Below are positions 21,861 through 32,960 of a DNA stretch of 64,000 nucleotides, piece by piece. Positions within the stretch are counted from its first letter, which is position 1. Every line of letters begins with the position of its first letter. Under the pieces are notes generated by a model. The model had not been told where the DNA came from and did no database searches. It was given only the letters and a program-made list of their open reading frames with translations. Source of the stretch: Candidatus Yonathbacteria bacterium (GTDB taxonomy: Bacteria > Patescibacteriota > Minisyncoccia > Phycocordibacterales > JACNGX01); NCBI GenBank assembly GCA_013334825.1, contig JAAXWR010000001.1, positions 75,769 through 139,768 of the forward strand. Reading direction: 5' to 3'. Made by a program: the position numbers and the translations under genes.

Positions 21861-21940
21861 GATAATTTTACGCTCAAAGCGCAAAAAACACCCACAAGGG
21901 TGTTTTTTGCTTAACTATCGCTCGGATGTTGGGCGTGAGT

Positions 21941-21983
21941 GGGTGTACCAGGACTTGAACCTGGAACCGCCGAGGTATATGTT
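21941..21983 (-). pseudogene. tRNA 3'-half fragment (anticodon-loop 3' side, T-arm CCAGGTTCAAGTCCTGG, acceptor TACACCC) with no 5' half; bounded by the junction TATATGGAACAT
   Basis: RC reads ATATACCTCGGCGGTTCCAGGTTCAAGTCCTGGTACACCCA; no matching GGGTGTA acceptor upstream. Confidence 0.6.
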
Positions 21984-22018
21984 CCATATAATGACGGCAC
22001 TCAAACGTTAAAAATACG

Positions 22019-22092
22019 TGGGCGCACAGGGACTTGAACCCCGAACCGCCGAGGTATAAGCTCGGTGCTCTAACCAATTGAGCTATGCGCCC
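22019..22092 (-). tRNA. tRNA-Ile (anticodon UAU; decodes AUA)
   Basis: RC: GGGCGCA-TA-GCTCAATTGGTTAGAGC-A-CCGAG-CTTATAC-CTCGG-CGGTT-CGGGGTTCAAGTCCCTG-TGCGCCC-A; 5-bp anticodon stem, U33, anticodon T-A-T. Confidence 0.75.
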
Positions 22093-22190
22093 ACGTATTC
22101 TCACGTTTTCGTTTGTCATTATATATAAACATATAATGACATCATTCGAACGATATGTATGCAAGCATACAATCGATTCTCATTCGTCAT

Positions 22191-22228
22191 TATAAGCTCG
22201 GTGCTCTAACCAATTGAGCTATGCGCCC
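22191..22228 (-). pseudogene. partial duplicate of the tRNA-Ile(UAU) 5' half
   Basis: TATAAGCTCGGTGCTCTAACCAATTGAGCTATGCGCCC identical to the corresponding part of the 22019-22092 gene. Confidence 0.8.
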
Positions 22229-22762
22229 ACGTCCGGTCTCCGTTCTTTCGTGAAATTTTAAGTTCGGGGCTCCTTCGCCTTGTCAGAGCTTTAGGGCAGG
22301 TAACCAACTGCCGTGTCCTCCGAAGCCTTGGCGAAGGAGAATGCTAGGCACCCCTATATGTTCCCTTATGTGATATAAAATACATAACTTGGGATATAAG
22401 CATGGTACTACAGAATAACTTTTTTTTCCACCTATTGTAATAGAGTGAGTGCAGTAAGTGTTGCTTCCTACATTCTAGTTTGAATTGCAACAAATAGTAT
22501 TCCTTGGTGGCACTTTTCCTAACACAAACACCTCATACTGAATCAAATAGCCGAGACGTTTTTTCGCCTGATAATTCCGAAAGGACGGGCCTCTTTAAAA
22601 TGAAAAAAATGTGGTGTAATGTTGTTGTTCAATTGCCCGCCATATCCCAGTATCTCTCATACCAAGGTTAAACCTTGGGAGTATGCCCTGTACCAACATT
22701 AAGAGTTGGTACAGAACGTGTATTGTCATGTCATGGAGCATTGCTCGTGTTACAATACTCGT

Positions 22763-25015
22763 ATGACATTAGAACAACGAAAGCCGATTCATCTTGCTGA
22801 CTCAATTGACATACACACCCGTATGTCTGAACCACAAAAGAAGGCACTTGCTTCACTTGGTATTGTGACGGTACACGATATGCTGTATCACTTTCCGGCG
22901 CGATATCATCATATTGCGTCAATGAAACGTATTGCTGACCTTGTTATGGGTGATGAAGCGGTCGTGTATGGTAAAGTCATATCTGCAAAGACGACCAAAG
23001 CATATAAGAAAAAGATTCCCATTGGCGAGATTACGATTGATGATGGGACAGGTAAGATAAAAGCAGTGTGGTTTCATCAGGCATTTGCTGCGGCTGTGCT
23101 CAAAGAGGGAACCTATGTGAAGCTTGCCGGTCGTGTACAGCAAAAAAAGACGGGAGAATTGTATTTGGGTAATCCGGAATTTGAAAAAACGAAAGCACTT
23201 CCTATTGATGTGGGGAATTCACTTTTTGCTGGTGGTCTGCATGATGATGTGTTTGCTGCGCCAGTATATCCAGAGAGTAGAGGTGTATCATCGCGGTTTA
23301 TCGCCCATGCTGTGGAACGATTGTTTGCGCGTGGCGCGCTTGATGGATTGGCAGATCCTATCCCAGAGGATATGTTGAAGCGGTATAATCTGCCGACACT
23401 CGCGACCGCACTCGTGTGGATACATACCCCTCAGAAAGAAGCTGATGCGCGCGCAGCGCGCAAACGATTTGCGTTTGAAGAAATATTTTTTATTCAGCTC
23501 GCACGTCAGCGGGCACGTCGTGCGTATCGAGACCTTGAAGCATTTGATATTGATACCGACCGCGAGGCGATTGCACCGTTTCTCAAGAAGTTTTCTTTTC
23601 CGCTTACTGGAGCGCAAGAACGCGCGATTGATGCAATACTGTCGGACATGGGAAGTGGAGAGCCGATGACGCGACTCCTTGAGGGAGATGTGGGGTCGGG
23701 AAAGACGGCGGTCGCTGCCGCGACCGCCTACGCCACCGTCTCCACACGCCCAAAAGGACAGGACTTCGGGACACTCCAGGTTGCCTATATGGCGCCAACG
23801 GAGATTCTTGCGACGCAGCATTTTCTCTCATTTATTGAATATTTTAGAAACACACCGATACAGGTGGGGCTTATTACGGGAAGTGGATGTAAAAAGTTTC
23901 CGTCAAAAAACGACCCCAATAAACCGACGGATATTTCTCGTGCGCAACTTTTGAAATGGGTGGCAAGTGGAGAAATCGCGATTGTGTTCGGCACACATGC
24001 ACTTATTCAAAAGAGCGTGAAGTTTAAACATCTTGCATACGCTATCATTGATGAACAACACCGATTCGGTACACATCAGCGCGGAGCGCTGATACGCGGA
24101 AGTGACGCGGACACTACGCAGACTCAAGCGGAACATACGCAGAATAATGCAGATGGTACTTCGCGACCTTCCGCGTATGTTCCGCATCTGCTGTCGATGA
24201 CGGCGACACCGATTCCGCGCACGCTCGCACTCACTATCTATGGTGATCTTGACCTCACACTTTTGGATGAATTGCCTGCGGGACGCAAGGATGTGAAAAC
24301 TGCGGTGATTCCTCCCGATAGACGTGATGAAGTGTATACGCATATGCGTATTGCTCTCGATGAAGGACGACAAGCGTATGTGATATGTCCGCGTATTGAC
24401 GAACCAGATCCGGACAAAGCGGCAGCGCTCAATACCAAGTCGGTGAAGGCCGAGGCGGAGCGTCTCAAGCGCAATATCTTTCCTGACAAGACAATAGATA
24501 TTCTGCACAGTAAAATGACACCGAAAGAAAAAGATGCGACGATGGCGCGTTTTGCGGCGGGGGAGACAGATATACTTGTCGCGACATCTGTTGTTGAGGT
24601 GGGTGTGAATGTCCCCAATGCGACGGAGATTATTATCGAGGGTGCGGAGCGTTTTGGTTTGGCACAGCTCCATCAATTGCGCGGGCGTGTGCAACGAAGC
24701 GCATATCAGGCGCACTGTTATTTGTTTACTGACTCAGGCGCAGTTACTGCGTCTGAACGATTGGGAGCATTTGTAAAAGCGCGTGACGGTTTCGCACTCG
24801 CGGAAATGGATTTATCATTGCGAGGCTCGGGCGAACTGGGAGGAGGGAAGCAATGGGGCGTGACAGATGTCGGCATGGAAGCAATCAAAAATCTTCCTAT
24901 GGTAGAGGCAGCGCGCAATGAAGCGACGCGTATGTTGGATGAAGATGTTGATTTTCAGAGGCACCCACTTATTGCGCAAAGAGTCAAAGACGCGGAAGAG
25001 ATGCATTTTGAATAG
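22763..25015 (+). CDS. recG: ATP-dependent DNA helicase RecG
   Basis: N-terminal wedge region (LASLGIVTVHDMLYHFPARY), FPLTGAQERAIDAIL, Walker A GDVGSGKT, DEQHRFG, RecG C-terminus; TACAAT 6 nt upstream of the ATG. Confidence 0.88.
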   Translation: MTLEQRKPIHLADSIDIHTRMSEPQKKALASLGIVTVHDMLYHFPARYHHIASMKRIADLVMGDEAVVYGKVISAKTTKAYKKKIPIGEITIDDGTGKIKAVWFHQAFAAAVLKEGTYVKLAGRVQQKKTGELYLGNPEFEKTKALPIDVGNSLFAGGLHDDVFAAPVYPESRGVSSRFIAHAVERLFARGALDGLADPIPEDMLKRYNLPTLATALVWIHTPQKEADARAARKRFAFEEIFFIQLARQRARRAYRDLEAFDIDTDREAIAPFLKKFSFPLTGAQERAIDAILSDMGSGEPMTRLLEGDVGSGKTAVAAATAYATVSTRPKGQDFGTLQVAYMAPTEILATQHFLSFIEYFRNTPIQVGLITGSGCKKFPSKNDPNKPTDISRAQLLKWVASGEIAIVFGTHALIQKSVKFKHLAYAIIDEQHRFGTHQRGALIRGSDADTTQTQAEHTQNNADGTSRPSAYVPHLLSMTATPIPRTLALTIYGDLDLTLLDELPAGRKDVKTAVIPPDRRDEVYTHMRIALDEGRQAYVICPRIDEPDPDKAAALNTKSVKAEAERLKRNIFPDKTIDILHSKMTPKEKDATMARFAAGETDILVATSVVEVGVNVPNATEIIIEGAERFGLAQLHQLRGRVQRSAYQAHCYLFTDSGAVTASERLGAFVKARDGFALAEMDLSLRGSGELGGGKQWGVTDVGMEAIKNLPMVEAARNEATRMLDEDVDFQRHPLIAQRVKDAEEMHFE

Positions 25016-25250
25016 GGACAAAAAAATCGTATCCGCGTTTTGCGGTGGGTTTACCCTCCGTTCACATTTCGCAGTCATTTCACATTGTCCGTTCGCATTC
25101 GCTCACAGAGCCTCTCCCGTGTTTGCTTCGTATTCGCTCTATGGCTTCGTTGAAGTCCGTGGTAATTCTAGAAAAGCGGATTGTGTTGAGGCATAAATAA
25201 GTTTATATATGCTTGCCCCACCCAACCAGTGCGCGCACAAGCAGTGCCCC

Positions 25251-27452
25251 CTAAACTTTCTCAAGTAGTGTGAGAAAGTCCTTCAATTTTTGTATTTTTT
25301 CTGGTTCACGCAATTTAATGGTCTCGTGTTGATCGTGCATATGCTCGTGCCAGTTGTTACTTAGAATCTCATCTTTGACTGCACATTTTCCATCGATTTT
25401 TTCTAGATACGCAGATATGCTCCCGTCTGCAAGCGTGCTTTTATCAAGCATGAAGTAATACTTATGTCTCAAGATTCTCTCTAGACATTTTCGGACTTTT
25501 CCTATGGCTTCGTCTACATTACGAGAGTTATCTGCCGCATCTTTAATATATTTGATATCTTTGAAATACTGCTCTTCAATCAACTCATCCACGTCACATT
25601 CTTCAAGTACTGAACCAAATGTTTTAGAATGTTTAATTCTTAGTATTTTCGTATCTGAAGAAGGCAACTTTTCTTGCAGTCTTCCCAAAAAACTATCATC
25701 ATGAGTTAGGATAATTACCTGTTCTGGTAAATCATCACTCTCATTTCTAATATCAATTATTGCTTTTGCTAGATAGTCTTTTCTGTTTGAATCAAAACTT
25801 GAAAAAGGATCATCTAGAATGACTATTTTACTTTTCAAATTTGAATCCGTTTTAAGACTTGAAATGAAAAAAGCCATTGCTAAGAGTCTTCGATCACTGT
25901 CACTGAGTGTGTTTCCAAAATACGCTTTATCCAAAGGCTCTTCATCTGACTGAGAACGTTTATTGGAAATTGGTACTGTTTCCCCATCGATAACAAACTC
26001 ATAATCAAGAAAGTGTGCATCAGATCGTGTGAGATTTGATTTGCTATTTAACTTTTGTATTGTAAAATCTGCCTTTAAAACATCCCTCAAGACCATGTTG
26101 ATTTGTTCCTGATTCTTTTCAATTGTACTTTTCGTTATCTTGTCTATCTTTTTCCGTAATGCATCAATTTTTACTTTCTTCATTTCAACAGCTTTTCCAG
26201 CTTGCTGGTATTTTTCTGCGAGAGTTACACCTTCTTTACTATGGCGGTATTGCGACAATTGAAACTGTTTCAATTCATTTTCAAGACCTTGTAATTTGAG
26301 AGCAGAAAACTCTTGTGTTTTTAATTCATTTAAAATTGAATGTAATTTTTTGATTTCTGAAACAAATACTTGAAAATGACTGTCTTCCGCTTCACAATTG
26401 ATAGGATGATTCAGATTTTTTAGTTTTTTTGCAACATCTTCATCAAGAGCTTTTTTGTTTTCCAACAATAGTTTTTTATCTAAAATATCTTCACACTTAA
26501 CCCCGAGAGAAGTGAATTTCGCTATTTCTGCTTCTGGATCAAAGCGCAAGAATCTCTCTCCGTATGTTTCTATTTCTTGTCGTGTTGTTGTGTAAGTTTC
26601 CCCGAAGACTTTTTTGAAATCCTTAATCAGATCGGTGACTGGTGCAAGATTTTGTCCGCAGAATATACATGCATCTGAATCTTTTTTCAACAAGGTGACA
26701 CCGTCTGCCAGAAAATTCTTTGACGCATGTTCATCATTCCAGTGATTGCGAATATGTTCATCAATATTCTTTTCAGCGGATGTGTCCAGGGTTTTCTGCA
26801 TTGCAGCAAAAAAATTATCAAACGTACTTGCAAGAGGTGATGTTGGTACTAACTGCTTGAGTGCATCACTATTTTTTAGTCTTTGAATTTTTTCTTTTTT
26901 CTTTTCAACCTCCTCATCAATATTTGTAATCTCTATGGCTTTCAAGAAAAAATCAAATGTGCCTAGATCATATTTTGTATATTCTGTTTTTATTTGGTCA
27001 CGTTGTTTCTCTAGAGCATCTTGTTCATCACGCAATTCCTTTAACTTCGTGACTTTTTGTCCCACGTTTTCACCAACAAAGATGCCGTGTAAAGATGATT
27101 TGTGTTTATGATCTATCTCGTCACCTACAAAAACTGAATTATGTATAAAATTGTTATCAAATATAGCAATGTTTGGATTATTCCAATTTCCATTTGCTAG
27201 AGTTAGATGCTTGTTGCTACTATCTAAAATATCAATCACGATGTCGCCAGTGTGCCCAAAACTTTTCTTTCCTTTTATACATTTCTGATCAGAATTTTTG
27301 AGAGATCTAAAAATGGTGGTTAGGGTACTTTTACCATAGGTGTTGTAACCAAAAATGATTGTATGTTTAAGAAACCTTAAATCGTCATTGCCACCATTGG
27401 CAAAGTTTTTGAATTTTCCCAACCCCTCAATTTTTAATATCTTACTAATCAT
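25251..27452 (-). CDS. SMC-like ABC ATPase (733 aa) with a coiled-coil insert carrying CxxC (CIFCGQ, res ~262) and a ~150-aa C-terminal extra domain; candidate RloC/PrrC-like anticodon nuclease
   Basis: Walker A GYNTYGKST, signature-like LSDSDRRLLAMAF, Walker B/D-loop IVILDDPFSSFD, H-loop ILTHDD; C-terminus VRKCLERILRH; last gene of the R-M operon. Confidence 0.45.
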   Translation of the reverse strand: MISKILKIEGLGKFKNFANGGNDDLRFLKHTIIFGYNTYGKSTLTTIFRSLKNSDQKCIKGKKSFGHTGDIVIDILDSSNKHLTLANGNWNNPNIAIFDNNFIHNSVFVGDEIDHKHKSSLHGIFVGENVGQKVTKLKELRDEQDALEKQRDQIKTEYTKYDLGTFDFFLKAIEITNIDEEVEKKKEKIQRLKNSDALKQLVPTSPLASTFDNFFAAMQKTLDTSAEKNIDEHIRNHWNDEHASKNFLADGVTLLKKDSDACIFCGQNLAPVTDLIKDFKKVFGETYTTTRQEIETYGERFLRFDPEAEIAKFTSLGVKCEDILDKKLLLENKKALDEDVAKKLKNLNHPINCEAEDSHFQVFVSEIKKLHSILNELKTQEFSALKLQGLENELKQFQLSQYRHSKEGVTLAEKYQQAGKAVEMKKVKIDALRKKIDKITKSTIEKNQEQINMVLRDVLKADFTIQKLNSKSNLTRSDAHFLDYEFVIDGETVPISNKRSQSDEEPLDKAYFGNTLSDSDRRLLAMAFFISSLKTDSNLKSKIVILDDPFSSFDSNRKDYLAKAIIDIRNESDDLPEQVIILTHDDSFLGRLQEKLPSSDTKILRIKHSKTFGSVLEECDVDELIEEQYFKDIKYIKDAADNSRNVDEAIGKVRKCLERILRHKYYFMLDKSTLADGSISAYLEKIDGKCAVKDEILSNNWHEHMHDQHETIKLREPEKIQKLKDFLTLLEKV

Positions 27453-27458
27453 ACAAAT

Positions 27459-28229
27459 TTATTTCTTCATTCTTTGCTTGGCGATTCTTGCATATTCTTT
27501 ATCTTGCTCAATTCCAATCCATTTTCGACCATATTTTTTTGCTACATATGTCGTTGTGCCACTTCCCAAAAATGGATCAAGAACAATATCGCCTTTGTTG
27601 GAGCTTGCTAAAATAATACGCGTGAGCATTTCCTCAGGCTTTTGCGTAGGATGCAATGCGCGACCATTATCGCCACGCAAGCGCTCTTTTCCTTGGACAA
27701 GCGGAAGTTCCCAGAAATCACGCATTTGTTTTAGGTTTCCGTCCTTTTGCTTATTAGGATTTATTTTCTTTATTTCTTCGTAGTTGAATGTCCATCCACT
27801 TCCTTTTACAGCCCAAATAACAAACTCAGTTGAGTGTGTGAAGACACGCCTTGTCATATTCGGCATGGCGTTTGTCTTGTACCAAGTGATGACGTTATTT
27901 ACTTTGTAATCAAGTTGTTTTAATACAATCATCACCTCCGCGATGTTGTGATAACTACAGGCGACATAAATTGATCCTTTATCTTTCAAAGCTCTATCGC
28001 AAGCACCCAGCCATTTTCTCGTAAATTGTAAATATTCCGGTGCAGACATTTTGTCCCATTCTTCGTCGACCATGTACCAATCTCCGCCAGTCTTGTTGCC
28101 TTTCCAGTGCAAACCGTTTCCAGATAGATTATAAGGAGGATCAGCAAAAACCAAATCAATAGATTTTTCCTCAACCTTTTTATTGAGAGTGTCTATACAG
28201 TCTCCATTGTAAATAATATTTGTTTTCAT
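27459..28229 (-). CDS. beta-class DNA methyltransferase (N6-adenine or N4-cytosine, DPPY motif)
   Basis: DLVFADPPYNL (motif IV) N-terminal, VLDPFLGSGTT (motif I) C-terminal. Confidence 0.85.
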   Translation of the reverse strand: MKTNIIYNGDCIDTLNKKVEEKSIDLVFADPPYNLSGNGLHWKGNKTGGDWYMVDEEWDKMSAPEYLQFTRKWLGACDRALKDKGSIYVACSYHNIAEVMIVLKQLDYKVNNVITWYKTNAMPNMTRRVFTHSTEFVIWAVKGSGWTFNYEEIKKINPNKQKDGNLKQMRDFWELPLVQGKERLRGDNGRALHPTQKPEEMLTRIILASSNKGDIVLDPFLGSGTTTYVAKKYGRKWIGIEQDKEYARIAKQRMKK

Positions 28230-28232
28230 GTT

Positions 28233-30056
28233 TTATGTTTGAGAAATAAGGCTTTCTTGCCATACTGAAATGGTATTTGGAATATTTCGTAACCATTCAT
28301 TTGAATCGCTAAATAATTTTGATGACTCCAAGATTTCATCATACAGGCGAGCAATTTCTGAGTGTTGCAAAAATCTCTTTTTTGATTTCATTTGCACCAA
28401 CACTTTCAACACAGAAACAAATTGTCTAATCGAAAGAGGTATGATTCTTTGTGGTTGTCCCTCGTACTCGTATTTTATTGCTGTCCAGAAAGTGTTTACT
28501 GTATCTCTGTGCAACTTCGGGGCAATAAACAGACAATAGGAAGGCTTGTTATTATGTTTTTGTTCGAAGTCTCGTAAATGTCGCATAACTGGTTGACCTT
28601 CGTTGTACCATTGATCGCGACCATTCAGCATCGTGACTTCACAAATGGCATTAAAACTATCGTAAAAACACTCTATGTCTGGTGTGTTTGCGGGGGCAGT
28701 AAATGTTGGTTCATTGTCGTCACCGACAGGATAGTTTGGTTGAATTTTCAATGCATCATTTAAAGCGTGCAATCCAAGTGCAGATAATTTTTCAAGTAAG
28801 ATCGGACGATCATCAAAATCAAAAATGTTTTCAAGATCATTTATGTAAGATTCGACCTGTTCAATCGCTTGAGATTTACTGTGACTTTCTGCGTTTTGTA
28901 GTTCTCGTCTATATACTCTCAATTCTGTAATATATTTTCTTAGTTCATCAACCTGCATTTCCTGGTGACTCTTAATTTCAAGATTATCTTCCTGCAAAGT
29001 AGATTCGTATTCACGTATTTCCTCAATAAGTCTTTCGGCAATCTCATTATATTTTTCTGCAGTTTCCCAAGGTAGTTTCGGTTCCGAAATATCGGAAATG
29101 TAAGCAAGATAATCTTCTTTTGATTCGAAATGTTTTGCTTGTGCGTTATCATATGCAAGCAGAGAATCAATTTCGATTTTTCTCCTTTCCTCAAGATCAA
29201 CATAGAAACCACCGCCACGAATATGAATGTATCGAGTTAAGCGGAAATAACGGATTGCATTATCTCCATAATCTTGCAAATTGCTTAATAAGCCACCTAT
29301 TTCTTGTTCATCATCGGTTTCTAGAAAATCACTTGCAAACCGCCGTTTGTAAGCATCAAATATTTCTTTTTGCTCCTGCTTTGTTTTGCCACTTAATTCA
29401 TCTCGCAAGGTGATGATTTTTTCTGCATACATGCTGATACTTTGATAATGTATCAAAGTAGGAGCAAAGAGAGACAATTCTTTTTTACTAATGCCTTTTG
29501 CATTGTTGCCACGCGCAGTCTCTTTTTGGTTAACTTCGTTGATTAAATGGAGTGTTCCTATAAACGGTTTGATATCGTAGTCTCCGTTATCTTGATAATC
29601 TCGACTGTCTGGATTTGGTATTTGCCACTTTAAGAAGCTTCTAAAAAATATTTCTCCAAAATCAAAATCATCTTTTAGAAATAATTTTCCTAATTCTGTT
29701 ATTTTTACCTTGTTATCTTCGATGGCGACAAGCCCTATTTTTTTGAGAGGGTTCATTGACTGCCTCCCACGCATTGCAGGATCTTCATAATTTTTCGCAT
29801 TAAAAATTTCTTCCGCCTGCTCAAGAGAGATGTCTCTTGATGGATCATCAACCAAATCAACATGATCTTGCATAAGTCCATTGTAGAATTGGCGACTTCC
29901 ATAACCGTATATTCTGTTCTGGATCAGCAAAATTTGATATTTCTTTTGGTTCTCAAGATTCCACTCAAAATTTTCAAGCTGTTGCAAAACAATCAAGAAA
30001 TTTCTCAATCTCTCAGGATTTCGTAATGTTGTTGTGATTGACCAGGGTTTTTTCAT
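28233..30056 (-). CDS. putative restriction endonuclease (607 aa; size and two-MTase context suggest a Type IIS, AlwI-family-like enzyme)
   Basis: AT-rich ORF sandwiched between two MTase genes with 2-3 nt spacers; possible PD...ExK-like PDIE...CEVT near the C-terminus; family assignment is inference only. Confidence 0.4.
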   Translation of the reverse strand: MKKPWSITTTLRNPERLRNFLIVLQQLENFEWNLENQKKYQILLIQNRIYGYGSRQFYNGLMQDHVDLVDDPSRDISLEQAEEIFNAKNYEDPAMRGRQSMNPLKKIGLVAIEDNKVKITELGKLFLKDDFDFGEIFFRSFLKWQIPNPDSRDYQDNGDYDIKPFIGTLHLINEVNQKETARGNNAKGISKKELSLFAPTLIHYQSISMYAEKIITLRDELSGKTKQEQKEIFDAYKRRFASDFLETDDEQEIGGLLSNLQDYGDNAIRYFRLTRYIHIRGGGFYVDLEERRKIEIDSLLAYDNAQAKHFESKEDYLAYISDISEPKLPWETAEKYNEIAERLIEEIREYESTLQEDNLEIKSHQEMQVDELRKYITELRVYRRELQNAESHSKSQAIEQVESYINDLENIFDFDDRPILLEKLSALGLHALNDALKIQPNYPVGDDNEPTFTAPANTPDIECFYDSFNAICEVTMLNGRDQWYNEGQPVMRHLRDFEQKHNNKPSYCLFIAPKLHRDTVNTFWTAIKYEYEGQPQRIIPLSIRQFVSVLKVLVQMKSKKRFLQHSEIARLYDEILESSKLFSDSNEWLRNIPNTISVWQESLISQT

Positions 30057-30058
30057 AA

Positions 30059-31867
30059 TTATTTTGTTACTTTACAGTAGAAAATGCGTTCCGCATTATC
30101 TTCTCCGTTACTTTTTCCTGTCGTAAAGGCTTTGTAATCTTTTTCAAAAATCTCAACATCACCCTTGTCGTTTAGAATTTGTAGAATTTCATCATCACTC
30201 ATACGCGCATTAGAACGCCCATCTTTGGAATCTCCAGTATTATTGTATGAAAGTAAAATATGCTCGCAGTTTGCATTTCTGATAAGGTCTGCAAAAGCAC
30301 TCGTTGCACTTTTTAGGCAATAGTCACTTTTAATGTGAGAGCGATCCATTTTTTTACCAATCCCAATAACCTCTGGCTTTTTCCATTCCGCAAGATTTTC
30401 TAAAAGATGGTAGGCATCCGAGTATTGACGTGAATTATATGGTGGATCTACGTATAAAACATCACAAGAAATTTTTCTGATAAGGGTATTTGCGTCTTCT
30501 CTATAAATTTCATTATTTGTGTTGCGAATGTAATCAACATCAGGAATCAAAAGCTTTATGGGCTGCAACATGTCTAGCTTTTTACGAAAAGCGTCATAAT
30601 GACCAACGGTATTGGCAACTTTATCGACAGCATAAAGCAAGGAACAAATCAAAATATTTTTTTCTTCCTCATTTTCTGCTATCTTTTCAATTTCTGCACG
30701 CATTGCCCCAATCTTTCTTGCGTTTTCTTTTGTAAAATACGTCCCGCCAAAATGTTCAGAAAAATAGTTTTCCTTGTCGTTCGATAAATTATTAAGAACC
30801 TCTATCTTTTCAGAGATGCCTTGTCGCATGTCCCGATTGACTCCCAAAAACGCATATAGGCAAGCATAATTTGCTGAGAGAAAATCATTGGAAATGATTT
30901 TGATTTCTGGACTATTGAACCTTTCTCCAACGACACCTGTGCCTGCAAAAATATCGCAAAGTGAATTGATTGATCCACATTTTTCAGAAATTATGTCTTC
31001 GATAAATCCAAGCAATTTGTGTTTATTTCCCAAATATCTTCTGTTTTGAAGTTGGAAATACCCGCTTTTTGATGCTTGGGGCTGGAAGTAATGTTTATCA
31101 ATTTTTTTTATACTTACTTCGTAAGTCGGTTTTTCAATTTCTAATAGACCAAACAGCGTTTCTTGCATCCCGTCAGCGACATAATCAAAACCTTTATTTT
31201 GATCCTTTAGTTTTTCGTAAAAACTGTAATATCCTTTTTGAGAGACAATGACAAAATCAATGACAGAAATTCCCATTATTTCTCCTGCTTGTGCTATTTT
31301 TTCAACAATTTGAATATCTTTCTCGCTCGGCGTTGAATCACCAGACGGATGATTGTGTATAAGAATCACGCTTGCGGCGTTAAGTTCTGTTGCAGGATAG
31401 AAAATCTCTCTCGGGTGCAGTAGTGTCTTATCAAGAAGTCCAACACTGATAACTTCTTTTTTTAATAAAATATTTCTTGCATTCAGATACAGACAAACGA
31501 GATGTTCTTTTTTCTTATCTCTCAAATCGTAAGTTAAAGAGATAACATCTTGAGAATTACTGATTTTTATTTCGTTTGTCCGATCATCTGCATAAAATCT
31601 TTTTACTAAAGAAATTGCTGACGCAATTTGCAACGCTTTTGCTTGTCCGATTCCAGAGATTTCTTGCAAATTATCAACGGTAATATTCAAAAAGTTTTTG
31701 CCAAATTTCCTAATTATTTCTTGAGACAATTCTTGAACATTCGTGCCTTTGATACCGCTACCGAGCAAAATAGCCAAAAGATCACTTTTTGAAAGTGCTT
31801 CAGGACCTTTCTTGAGAAATCTTTCTCGCGGTCTATCAATTTTTGGAATATCTTTGATCTTTGTCAT
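30059..31867 (-). CDS. fusion protein: N-terminal RadC-like JAB/MPN domain + C-terminal Dam-family (alpha-class, D12) N6-adenine DNA methyltransferase
   Basis: RadC: HLVCLYLNARN...ILIHNHPSGDSTPSEKDIQI; MTase: RRYLGNKHKLL (motif I region), DVLYVDPPYNS (motif IV). Confidence 0.8.
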   Translation of the reverse strand: MTKIKDIPKIDRPRERFLKKGPEALSKSDLLAILLGSGIKGTNVQELSQEIIRKFGKNFLNITVDNLQEISGIGQAKALQIASAISLVKRFYADDRTNEIKISNSQDVISLTYDLRDKKKEHLVCLYLNARNILLKKEVISVGLLDKTLLHPREIFYPATELNAASVILIHNHPSGDSTPSEKDIQIVEKIAQAGEIMGISVIDFVIVSQKGYYSFYEKLKDQNKGFDYVADGMQETLFGLLEIEKPTYEVSIKKIDKHYFQPQASKSGYFQLQNRRYLGNKHKLLGFIEDIISEKCGSINSLCDIFAGTGVVGERFNSPEIKIISNDFLSANYACLYAFLGVNRDMRQGISEKIEVLNNLSNDKENYFSEHFGGTYFTKENARKIGAMRAEIEKIAENEEEKNILICSLLYAVDKVANTVGHYDAFRKKLDMLQPIKLLIPDVDYIRNTNNEIYREDANTLIRKISCDVLYVDPPYNSRQYSDAYHLLENLAEWKKPEVIGIGKKMDRSHIKSDYCLKSATSAFADLIRNANCEHILLSYNNTGDSKDGRSNARMSDDEILQILNDKGDVEIFEKDYKAFTTGKSNGEDNAERIFYCKVTK

Positions 31868-31869
31868 AA

Positions 31870-32079
31870 TTATTTCAAAAGGGTATCGATACTCACGCTA
31901 AGCACCTTGGCGACCTTTTCCATTGTCCTAATTGTAAGATTTTGTTTGCCGTTCTCGACATTGCTAATATATGCTCGGTCTAATCCCAAATCTCGGCAAA
32001 TGTCGCCTTGCGACATGCCTTTTTCGAGCCGAATCTTTTTCATGTTTTCGCCAAATTTTTGTGCTGTGGTTTTTGCCAT
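31870..32079 (-). CDS. XRE-family helix-turn-helix transcriptional regulator (candidate R-M controller protein)
   Basis: MAKTTAQKFGENMKKIRLEKGMSQGDICRDLGLDRAYISNVENGKQNLTIRTMEKVAKVL; first gene of the operon. Confidence 0.75.
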   Translation of the reverse strand: MAKTTAQKFGENMKKIRLEKGMSQGDICRDLGLDRAYISNVENGKQNLTIRTMEKVAKVLSVSIDTLLK

Positions 32080-32239
32080 AATGTATGAAAACTTATCAAC
32101 ATTGGTATTATAGCATTCTATTGTGTTTTGGCTCAATGTTAAGCTATAATACAAGTGCGCAAAACAGTATTTTTATGAAGCGTCGGAACCAAAACCAAAA
32201 TTTTCCTTTCCATTTTTTGTCGGCTCCGCTCCTACGCAC

Positions 32240-32620
32240 CGCCGAAAAAGGGGAGGGAGGGAGGGATTCTCTCCTTACAGGAGCAGTACAGGTTTTCCAT
32301 TTTTTTGGAGCAAAGCACCTCAAACATATGGGAGAACCTTTTTCCGCGACATCCCCGCTCTTTGCTCCGCAAAGGACGGGGTGCGCGGACCCGCCCAGCT
32401 CTTTCAAAAAGGGCTGGGCGGGCGAATCATTTCTGGGAGGGATTCGGTCACCAGTTCTAAGCATATTGCTCCAAGTATTCGCAATCCGCTAAGAACTCGC
32501 GACCCCGTCGCCGCGCTCCGACAAGATAAATCTTGTCGGGCTTCGCGCGCGGCTTTTTCGAATCCCTCCCTCTCTCGCAACATATAAATCGCCGGGCGAA
32601 TTCTCGCCCGGCTCATTATG
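32240..32620. repeat. GC-rich non-coding stretch with multiple partial copies of the tRNA-Ser T-arm/acceptor motif (GGAGGGATTC / GAATCCCTCC) and a long inverted repeat abutting the tRNA 3' end
   Basis: Copies at ~32246, ~32436, 32560-32583 (inverted) and in the tRNA itself; no coherent ORF; overlapping ORFs on both strands are spurious. Confidence 0.6.
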
Positions 32621-32623
32621 TTG

Positions 32624-32710
32624 CGGAGAGGGAGGGATTCGAACCCTCGAGACGATTGCTCGCCTAACACCTTAGCAGGGTGCCCCGTTCGACCGCTCCG
32701 GCACCTCTCC
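32624..32710 (-). tRNA. tRNA-Ser (anticodon GCU), long variable arm
   Basis: RC: GGAGAGG-TG-CCGGAGCGGTCGAACGG-GGCACC-CTGCTAA-GGTGT-[long variable arm]-GAGGGTTCGAATCCCTC-CCTCTCC-G. Confidence 0.88.
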
Positions 32711-32737: not shown

Positions 32738-32818
32738 TCTCGGTGATGACGATTGCTCGCCTCACGCCTTAGCTGGGATGGGAGCGAGACCCGGAAGCTC
32801 CCATGGTCGACCGCTCCG
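32738..32818 (-). pseudogene. degenerate partial copy of tRNA-Ser (5' two-thirds) with a 27-nt hairpin insertion, lacking T-arm and 3' end
   Basis: GACGATTGCTCGCCTCACGCCTTAGCTGGG-[ATGGGAGCGAGACCCGGAAGCTCCCAT]-GGTCGACCGCTCCGGCACCTCTCC versus the intact gene. Confidence 0.75.
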
Positions 32819-32960
32819 GCACCTCTCCAATATAACAAGCGCCTTTAGGAAAGTGCTTGGTTTGGACAGTGTAGCATAGTTTTTTTGATTTGAGGAGACG
32901 GATGCGAGGTTTGTAAAAAATCTGGACGGTTACCCGTCCAGTATTATTTCGGTATGTTTG

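Follow-up and report, generated by a model that had tools for sequence, protein, structure and literature searches.

A five-gene minus-strand locus beside tRNA-Ser in a Candidatus Yonathbacteria genome: probably one operon built from a controller-like regulator, an AlwI-family Type IIS cassette with a RadC–methyltransferase fusion and an RloC-family gene

The window analysed here is a 64,000-nt stretch of a Candidatus Yonathbacteria genome (assembly GCA_013334825.1, contig JAAXWR010000001.1, positions 75,769–139,768), in which positions are counted from the first letter. Between recG and a tRNA-Ser gene, the window contains five co-directional open reading frames (ORFs) on the minus strand, which are separated by spacers of 2, 2, 3 and 6 nt and most probably form one transcription unit composed of three separable modules of known kinds: a regulator, a Type IIS restriction–modification (R-M) cassette and an RloC-type backup. 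In the order of transcription, the locus encodes a small helix-turn-helix (HTH) protein (31870..32079), a 602-residue fusion of a RadC module and a D12-class methyltransferase (M1; 30059..31867), a 607-residue AlwI-family endonuclease (R; 28233..30056), a 256-residue beta-class methyltransferase (M2; 27459..28229) and a 733-residue RloC-family ATPase (25251..27452). The recG gene (22706–25015, assigned by Pfam) lies on the plus strand and is convergent on the five genes. On the opposite side, the neighbour is tRNA-Ser(GCT) (32623..32710, minus strand), which was found by ARAGORN and scores 54.8 bits with the tRNA model of Rfam; in an Rfam scan of the spacer and the island, this tRNA alone exceeded the threshold.

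The five-gene segment has a GC content of 0.31–0.40 per 500 nt, compared with 0.43–0.52 in the flanks. The mean values are 0.36 for the three-gene cassette (M1, R and M2), 0.34 for the ATPase gene and 0.44 for the remaining window. The original prediction, made from the sequence letters and an ORF list, had described five tightly spaced minus-strand genes in AT-rich DNA between recG and tRNA-Ser; their coordinates and base composition are as it gave them, and Pfam agrees with its gene order and with all five of its domain assignments. An identical five-gene arrangement is present on contig L001 (L numbers designate the contigs and loci used for comparison). In the ORF list, the HTH gene spans 31870–32154 on the minus strand and encodes 94 residues. 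A 69-residue protein that starts at the ATG at 32079 is likelier, because the TTG at 32154 falls within a candidate operator, the gene is called at 69 residues on the identical contig L001, and the homologues contain 68–69 residues.

The HTH protein matches Pfam HTH_3 (4e-15), and its top PADLOC matches are Control_protein models (1.4e-16 and 2e-14). The candidate promoter and operator (32105..32152, minus strand) are located directly upstream, where an exact 10-nt inverted repeat encloses both promoter elements. The arms of the repeat, GTATTATAGC at 32143–32152 and GCTATAATAC at 32105–32114, are 28 nt apart, and the enclosed elements are a -35 hexamer TTGAGC (32131–32136) and a TG-extended -10 hexamer TATAAT (32107–32112). 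Of the promoter-like sites in the 7.8-kb region, the best two are found just 5' of the HTH gene. The 10-mer TTGTATTATA is positioned at -75 in the window and at -66 upstream of the HTH gene in L095, occurs as variants in L018 and reads TGTATTATA in the sister locus L100, whose HTH control region is conserved. The motif was obtained by direct scan, and a MAFFT alignment of three control regions failed to register it. The inverted repeat is probably the operator that the HTH protein binds. Homologues of the HTH protein head operons of several kinds: a Type III-like/RloC operon in L095 (66% identity), the same Type IIS cassette in L018 (58%) and a different R-M operon at the same site in L100 (87%). 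On our reading, the protein is a controller-like autoregulator, and its operon can accommodate R-M cargoes of different kinds.

The three genes that follow the HTH gene have the composition of an AlwI-family Type IIS system. M1 contains a helix-hairpin-helix (HhH) region of the UPF0758_N family at its N-terminus (residues 4–78, nt 31634–31858; Pfam 3e-23), a RadC JAB domain (residues 102–219, nt 31211–31564; 3e-38), a linker (residues 220–277) and a MethyltransfD12 domain (residues 278–602, nt 30062–31036; 5e-34), all encoded on the minus strand. The FxGxG (F307/G309/G311) and D474-P-P-Y477 motifs of the D12 domain are invariant in 36 aligned fusions. M1 is predicted to be a D12-class N6-adenine methyltransferase and not a Dam orthologue, because the TIGR00571 Dam model yields 23.9 bits against a cut-off of 114.85 and a PDB search returned no match to a Dam, T4 Dam or DpnM structure at E<=0.001. 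The name Dam, under which the domain had first been reported, is accordingly too specific.

R matches Pfam RE_AlwI over 441 of the 441 model positions (1.3e-85), the PADLOC model PDLC03393 over its full length (3e-135) and the nicking endonuclease Nt.BspD6I (PDB 2ewf, 2.7e-31). R residues P459-D460, E473-V-T475, E486 and R492-H493 align with the PD...EVT...E...RH motif of BspD6I, in which we take the catalytic residues to be numbered D456/E469/E482, and the residues of the catalytic motif are retained in all 31 orthologues (31/31). R is thus predicted to be an AlwI-family Type IIS endonuclease with a C-terminal PD-(D/E)XK cleavage domain, in agreement with the initial proposal of an AlwI-type nuclease for this 607-residue protein.

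M2 is a predicted CcrM/HinfI-like beta-class (DPPY) N6-adenine methyltransferase. It matches Pfam N6_N4_Mtase (3e-62) and the CcrM model of NCBIfam (6e-81, short of the equivalog cut-off), and its best PDB match is CcrM (6pbd, 1.8e-62), with M.MboIIA as the runner-up (7.6e-32). The DPPY motif and the H94, M122-P-N124 and R128 residues are invariant in 32 orthologues, and the C-terminal DNA-binding domain of CcrM is absent. M1 and M2 flank R, and the S-adenosylmethionine-binding and DPPY motifs are intact in both. Annotated Lactococcus and Enterococcus plasmids encode D12 methyltransferases that are 45–48% identical to M1, next to genes annotated as 'AlwI family type II restriction endonuclease'. 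According to published descriptions, AlwI-family enzymes are accompanied by one methyltransferase per strand, and the Type IIS layout recognised in the initial reading, with two methyltransferases around one endonuclease, is the arrangement published for this family.

The recognition site is only weakly indicated. The characterised members of the family recognise GGATC (AlwI), GAGTC (MlyI/PleI and BstNBI/BspD6I) or GCATC (SfaNI-like). In M2, the equivalents of Tyr93/His94 of CcrM and the Loop-45 N-x-M-P-N motif are conserved. The guanine-reading Arg44 of CcrM is replaced by K43, which varies among the orthologues; a GANTC-type site is uncertain for this reason and because M2 lacks the C-terminal domain. 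Site counts across the 64 kb do not discriminate between candidates, with observed-to-expected ratios under a Markov model of 1.32 for GGATC and 0.82 for GAGTC. The resemblance of M2 to CcrM points towards a GANTC-like site, and the site may be GAGTC/GACTC-like, as for MlyI, PleI and BstNBI. As a separate observation, host DNA outside 25251–32154 is depleted in GATC (observed/expected 0.49), GGCC (0.51) and CCGG (0.65), which suggests that other restriction systems exert, or once exerted, pressure on it.

The three-gene cassette is widespread. The RadC-D12 protein falls into more than 120 clusters at 90% identity, whose members are 75–100% identical and contain the same three Pfam domains. In the contexts of four close homologues of the fusion (chromosomes of 4.9, 2.2 and 1.6 Mb and one Uhrbacteria contig), the RadC-D12, RE_AlwI and N6_N4 genes occur without HTH and AAA_13 genes in all four cases (4/4). 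A scan of one genome per species, with each locus scored by tblastn, identified ~28 loci with the fusion, the endonuclease and the beta-class methyltransferase in the same order and ~11 further loci in which the cassette is present at equal identity but lacks RadC. A related HTH gene was found in L018 only. Downstream of the cassette, a full-length AAA_13 gene was found in L038 only, and this gene is distant; L052 contains a short partial match. The hosts include many lineages of the candidate phyla radiation (CPR), Gammaproteobacteria, Spirochaetes, Cloacimonadota, Omnitrophota, Margulisiibacteriota and one Woesearchaeote. The GC content of the cassette is 0.28–0.37 in most hosts, next to flanks of up to 0.65, and this low value across hosts is consistent with recent horizontal spread. 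Relatives of the fusion were absent from IMG/VR, and the full-length fusion was absent from the plasmid and phage collections. Judged by these sequences and their contexts, the cassette is a horizontally spread, independent unit that is present in ~40 species, almost always without the HTH or ATPase gene. A second type of cassette combines a RadC-D12 fusion with a second D12 methyltransferase and a 505-residue RE_AlwI protein (L042, L044, L046, L047, L049 and L050).

The RadC–methyltransferase fusion had been singled out as unusual, and the number of protein clusters and the ~40 species with fusions contradict this view. A literature search found no published description of RadC fused to R-M methyltransferases. 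The original radC mutation has been reassigned, and since then RadC, although conserved across bacteria, has lacked an accepted function. The RadC part of M1 scores 220 bits with the RadC equivalog of NCBIfam (cut-off 180), and its JAB domain matches the RadC JAB structure 2qlc in the PDB (3.5e-25). The JAMM residues E154, H171, H173, S181 and D184 and the HhH residues G72-I73-G74 are invariant in the 36 aligned fusions, which come from many phyla. Between the two types of cassette, the RadC module is 65–88% identical to that of the window, whereas the D12 domain is only 42–45% identical.

The same module is also attached to methyltransferases of other classes. It is fused to a 5-methylcytosine (m5C) methyltransferase beside an HpaII-type endonuclease in L073 (885–3618), to an N6_N4 methyltransferase of marginal Pfam score beside an NgoFVII-like endonuclease in L076 (270–3380) and to an m5C-plus-D12 double methyltransferase in L065 (1612–4420), and these modules are 62–84% identical to that of the window (31193–31867). 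Among the 120 closest RadC modules, many of which are fragments, 21 also contain PF02086 and 14 contain PF00145. In L048, the cassette is a deletion derivative of the fusion in which the RadC tail and the linker are retained. In L100, a stand-alone 215-residue RadC gene closes an operon of m5C R-M and Vsr genes. Since radC is located near recG in only 1 of 60 relatives, this stand-alone gene belongs to the variable R-M segment of L100.

These observations suggest that many R-M methyltransferases have the RadC module as an accessory that is optional but under selection. We tentatively extend this reading to R-M methyltransferases in general, with HhH plus JAB as a functional accessory that is not specific to the present operon, because a conserved module with an intact metal site joins D12, N6_N4 and m5C methyltransferases whose partners are AlwI-family, HpaII-type and NgoFVII-like endonucleases. 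Our best guess for its role is an activity in processing or repair that is directed at DNA and accompanies the methyltransferase. If the general reading is correct, RadC would be a DNA-processing or repair-type enzyme native to methylation and restriction, acting as a Vsr-like safeguard or as an aid to establishment in a new host, and the long-unassigned RadC family would gain a testable function. R-M methyltransferases from three chemical classes occur as fusions with RadC; these fusions are widespread and apparently unreported, and the compact three-gene cassette, which exists with and without RadC, provides a ready-made system to probe the function of RadC.

One alternative is that RadC on M1 is a passenger, a neighbouring housekeeping radC that was fused by accident and has no R-M role. 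The classical position of housekeeping radC is upstream of mreB-mreC, and a RadC-bearing cassette occupies precisely this position in Uhrbacteria (L005/L027, 8001–14454). Consistent with the passenger reading, cassettes without RadC persist, and the RadC part of M1 exceeds the equivalog cut-off for ordinary RadC. However, adjacency to mreB is limited to this single case among 79 loci, and capture of radC beside mreB was dropped as a general origin of the fusion on this ground. The invariance of the JAMM and HhH residues, the greater conservation of the RadC module than of the D12 domain between the two types of cassette, the fusions to m5C and N6_N4 methyltransferases and the stand-alone radC that closes the R-M operon of L100 all oppose an accidental fusion. 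A housekeeping radC beside recG as the ancestral state was ruled out, given that radC is absent near recG in the 59 other relatives. A passenger origin is thus doubtful, although it deserves to be kept in mind.

The last gene of the locus encodes a 733-residue protein that matches Pfam AAA_13 (4e-24) and the PADLOC candidate family PDC-S06, and its homologues are labelled 'wobble nucleotide-excising tRNase', the COG name of RloC, by the JGI. By the published definition, RloC proteins have 658–897 residues, the motifs of ABC ATPases, a coiled-coil insert that bears a CXXC zinc hook and a C-terminal Arg-X3-Glu-X36-52-His triad (Davidov and Kaufmann 2008, PMC2610378). An alignment of 23 homologues with identities down to 23% contains an invariant Walker A motif (G35-T43) and invariant S517/D520, D547/D548, H584, C262/C265, R654 and E658 residues; H706, located 47 residues past E658, is conserved in at least 90% of the sequences. 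In the AlphaFold2 model (predicted local distance difference test, 86.5), the ABC head is split by helices that span residues 115–458, with the CXXC motif in the central loop, and R654 and E658 are located in a C-terminal helical domain (residues 621–733). In Foldseek, the model is closest to Smc and Rad50 heads with coiled coils. By all published sequence hallmarks the protein is a member of the RloC family, as the earlier description of an RloC-like ATPase had it, and by analogy it would be expected to cleave tRNA as an anticodon nuclease.

The RloC orthologues (43–82% identical) are tightly linked to other R-M systems, where they follow the last R-M gene with a 4-bp overlap or a gap of ~12–20 nt or are inserted between mod and res. 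They follow a Type IIG/ISP enzyme in L007/L008 (4-bp overlap), a Type III-like Mod/Res pair in L009/L010 and L095 and hsdM-hsdS-hsdR in L011/L012, and one adjoins an hsdS fragment in L013. In L098 (6767–13892), the orthologue is located between mod and res of a Type III-like system, surrounded by recombinase, integrase and primase genes, a layout reminiscent of the original arrangement that was named 'restriction-linked ORF'. In L038, the same Type IIS cassette is followed by an unrelated RloC-type gene (CPFC, R-X3-E-X50-SH), which is an independent recruitment. The published RloC genes are R-M-linked in 8 of 73 cases, with Type I or III systems only (PMC2610378). The lineage of the window is R-M-linked wherever its neighbours are readable, and these include Type IIS and Type IIG/ISP systems. 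From these neighbourhoods, RloC is evidently a module independent of the Type IIS cassette. Its linkage is extended from Type I/III to Type IIS/IIG systems and appears to be the rule rather than the exception in this lineage. Separately, a DUF2130 gene adjoins the RloC orthologue in L007 (11208–12614), L008 (4243–5649) and L013 (2884–4128), with a second copy close by in L007 and L008, and DUF2130 may be a further accessory of R-M/RloC islands.

The 733-residue protein could instead be another DNA-sensing SMC-like defence ATPase, such as an abortive-infection effector of the Lamassu/PDC-S06 type with a different target. This possibility derives from PADLOC, which assigns the protein to the uncharacterised PDC-S06 family and lists no model named RloC at E<=10, from the presence of Lamassu LmuB among the Foldseek matches and from the C-terminal domain, for which no sequence match to solved structures was found. 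Nevertheless, the Arg-X3-Glu-X47-His spacing is within the published X36-52 range; its Arg and Glu and the CXXC motif, which occupies a loop in the middle of the helical insert, are invariant in the alignment, and its His is conserved in at least 90% of the sequences. The size is also within the published RloC range, and the homologues bear the RloC COG name. We therefore regard a non-RloC effector as unlikely. The identification of the protein as PrrC was ruled out by its size, its CXXC insert, its Type IIS partner and a weak match to the PrrC model of PADLOC (1e-4, Walker B region only).

A second alternative concerns the mode of cleavage by R. The best PADLOC model of R is labelled 'Type II nicking endonuclease', and the locus contains no small-subunit gene, so R may nick rather than cut. 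Specifically, R could be a strand-specific nickase like Nt.BstNBI/Nt.BspD6I, with the JAB domain of M1 supplying the cleavage of the second strand. In the literature, the closest solved relative Nt.BspD6I requires a separately encoded small subunit for double-strand cleavage, and RadC has been predicted as a nuclease by positional equivalence. However, ~11 cassettes lack RadC at equal identity, and at least that of L048 is derived from the fusion by deletion. The RadC module also accompanies methyltransferases whose endonuclease partners, HpaII-type and NgoFVII-like enzymes, are not nickases, and AlwI and MlyI of the same family cut both strands as homodimers, as reported in the literature. 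A nickase completed by RadC is thus improbable.

The origin of the locus was visualized through a sister lineage, L100, which was recovered from a metagenome scan with RecG. The RecG proteins are 95% identical, and the flanks are ~88% identical at the nucleotide level. The recG gene, the HTH gene and its upstream region, a 13-mer copy of the tRNA end, tRNA-Ser and a partial tRNA copy are syntenic in the two sequences. At the site that corresponds to window positions 25150–32079, L100 (5769–9619) encodes the HTH protein followed by an m5C methyltransferase, a Type II endonuclease (PADLOC REase_II, 7e-46), Vsr and RadC, and its variable segment is 3.6 kb long compared with ~6.7 kb in the window. 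In the junction alignments and the blastn synteny, homology is lost within ~3 nt downstream of the HTH stop codon and ~135 nt beyond that of recG, and these breaks define the swapped segment as window positions 25150–31867 (minus strand), which comprises the Type IIS cassette and the RloC gene and leaves the tRNA-Ser gene outside. The R-M cargo at this locus has been swapped behind a conserved controller gene. Because the HTH gene and its upstream region are ~87% identical in L100, a level that matches the flanking housekeeping DNA, the HTH gene is resident at the locus and lies outside the mobile cassette. With its nucleotide-level junctions, this cargo swap in a CPR (Patescibacteria) genome cleanly exemplifies the exchange of defence modules in tiny genomes.

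The tRNA-Ser gene is surrounded by fragments of itself, all of which are situated either upstream of the tRNA or in the interval that separates it from the HTH gene. They comprise an exact 24-nt copy of the 5' end (32807–32830), a 30-nt copy at 90% identity (32748–32777), an 18-nt inverted copy of the 3' end (32557–32574) and an exact 13-mer copy of the tRNA end (32257–32269). The first two belong to one partial copy (32748–32830), in which the acceptor and D arm are exact over 24 nt, a hairpin is inserted, the anticodon/variable region is 90% identical and the T arm is lacking. This partial copy is 94% conserved in L100 and is thus old, and the tRNA fragments predate the swap, as they are conserved in L100. 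The degenerate tRNA-Ser copies of the original prediction are therefore real, but the integration of the island at tRNA-Ser, which it had deduced from them, is not supported: Pfam detected no integrase among the five genes, a repeat search found no copy of the tRNA-Ser 3' end at the recG border, and the junctions are elsewhere. An older event at tRNA-Ser may conceivably have created the locus. Right past the 3' end of tRNA-Ser, a GC-rich stretch of ~280 nt (32343–32622) is absent from L100 and has no Rfam match; it includes the 18-nt inverted copy of the tRNA 3' end (32557–32574) and a strong terminator-like hairpin with a 9-bp GC stem at 32591–32612.

A rearrangement was also observed around a second tRNA on the far side of recG. 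The tRNA-Ile(UAU) gene (22018–22092) is on the minus strand in the window and on the recG strand in L100, L101 and L102, and a ~294-bp segment (21939–22232) is inverted. The inverted segment includes an exact 42-nt duplicate of one half of the tRNA (22191–22232) and an 83% copy of the other half (21939–21984).

We infer that the five genes are co-transcribed as one unit, because the spacers measure 2–6 nt, the best promoter-like sites are found only 5' of the HTH gene and the hairpin past the tRNA would insulate the operon. We hold with good confidence that this unit combines a regulator, a Type IIS cassette and an RloC backup as three separable, known modules. In the corresponding mechanism, the resident HTH protein would be transcribed from the sigma-70-like promoter inside the 10-nt inverted repeat, bind the repeat and autoregulate the operon. 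The horizontally acquired cassette, which begins straight past the HTH stop codon, would provide M1 and M2 for the N6-methylation of adenine in a short asymmetric site, one enzyme per strand. The N-terminal domain of R would bind the unmethylated site, and its FokI-like C-terminal PD-(D/E)XK domain would cut alongside. By analogy with characterised RloC and PrrC, the RloC-family nuclease would remain silent as long as the cell is in its normal state. Once restriction has been disabled, or DNA breaks have accumulated, it would cut the anticodon loops of tRNA, and phage translation would stop.

Several observations weigh against parts of this reading. No terminator-like site was seen 3' of the RloC gene on the minus strand, and one promoter-like match (10/12) is located inside this gene. 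The counts of the operator motif, taken singly, fall short of significance in the window and in L095 (P ~0.09–0.11 against shuffles). A controller protein normally precedes the endonuclease gene and not the methyltransferase gene, whereas the HTH gene adjoins M1 and R is only the third gene, an order that is atypical for C proteins; the HTH protein may thus be a mere autoregulator. In the RloC-family protein, the residue before H706 is Met and not the frequent Ser. The nicking label and missing small subunit of R, the K43 substitution in M2, the lack of an RloC-named model and the weakness of the PrrC match, described above, count on the same side.

The opposite view, that all five proteins form one integrated, undescribed and mutually dependent defence system, draws on the 2–6 nt spacers, the common low GC content and the recurrence of the arrangement in the second assembly, L001, but is very improbable, since L001 apparently represents the same organism, ~40 other species have the cassette but neither the HTH nor the RloC gene, the RloC lineage of the window serves four other R-M types and, at the corresponding site of L100, the same HTH protein leads an unrelated set of R-M genes. 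The combination had been thought to match no described system; it is instead a mosaic whose three known modules are found independently of one another. As none of them is of a new kind, the operon itself is not a new defence principle.

Compared with known AlwI-family Type IIS systems, the cassette shares the RE_AlwI domain with its PD...E-V-T...E motif, two adenine methyltransferases and compact co-directional genes. It differs in the N-terminal RadC module of M1 and in the pairing of a D12 with a beta/CcrM-like enzyme, since the plasmid relatives contain two D12 enzymes, and the identity of R to BspD6I, the only solved member, is low. In common with C-protein-controlled R-M systems such as those of C.PvuII, C.AhdI and C.Esp1396I, the locus has a small HTH_3 protein encoded first in the operon, an inverted repeat that overlaps its own promoter and Control_protein models as the top PADLOC match. 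Unlike in those systems, the HTH gene is placed before the methyltransferase gene and alone cannot delay R relative to M, and members of its family stand first in operons of Type IIP, Type IIS and Type III-like systems. Vsr, a repair accessory of known function that accompanies m5C R-M systems, is a precedent for a repair-type enzyme that travels with R-M genes, and Vsr and RadC are found together behind the m5C pair of L100; unlike Vsr, RadC usually forms part of the methyltransferase polypeptide and is not the product of a separate gene.

The terminal ATPase shares the ATPase motifs, the CXXC helical insert, the triad, the size and the predicted Rad50/SMC-like fold with RloC of Geobacillus kaustophilus, and differs in that the R-M link, rare in the published set, is constant in the lineage of the window (PMC2610378). 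PrrC has 341–416 residues and no coiled-coil/zinc-hook insert (PMC2610378). With the PrrC-EcoprrI system, the locus would share the logic of a latent tRNase that is coupled to R-M as a second defence, along with the ATPase motifs and the type of triad; here, the protein has 733 residues, a CXXC insert and a Type IIS partner, whereas PrrC belongs to a Type Ic locus.

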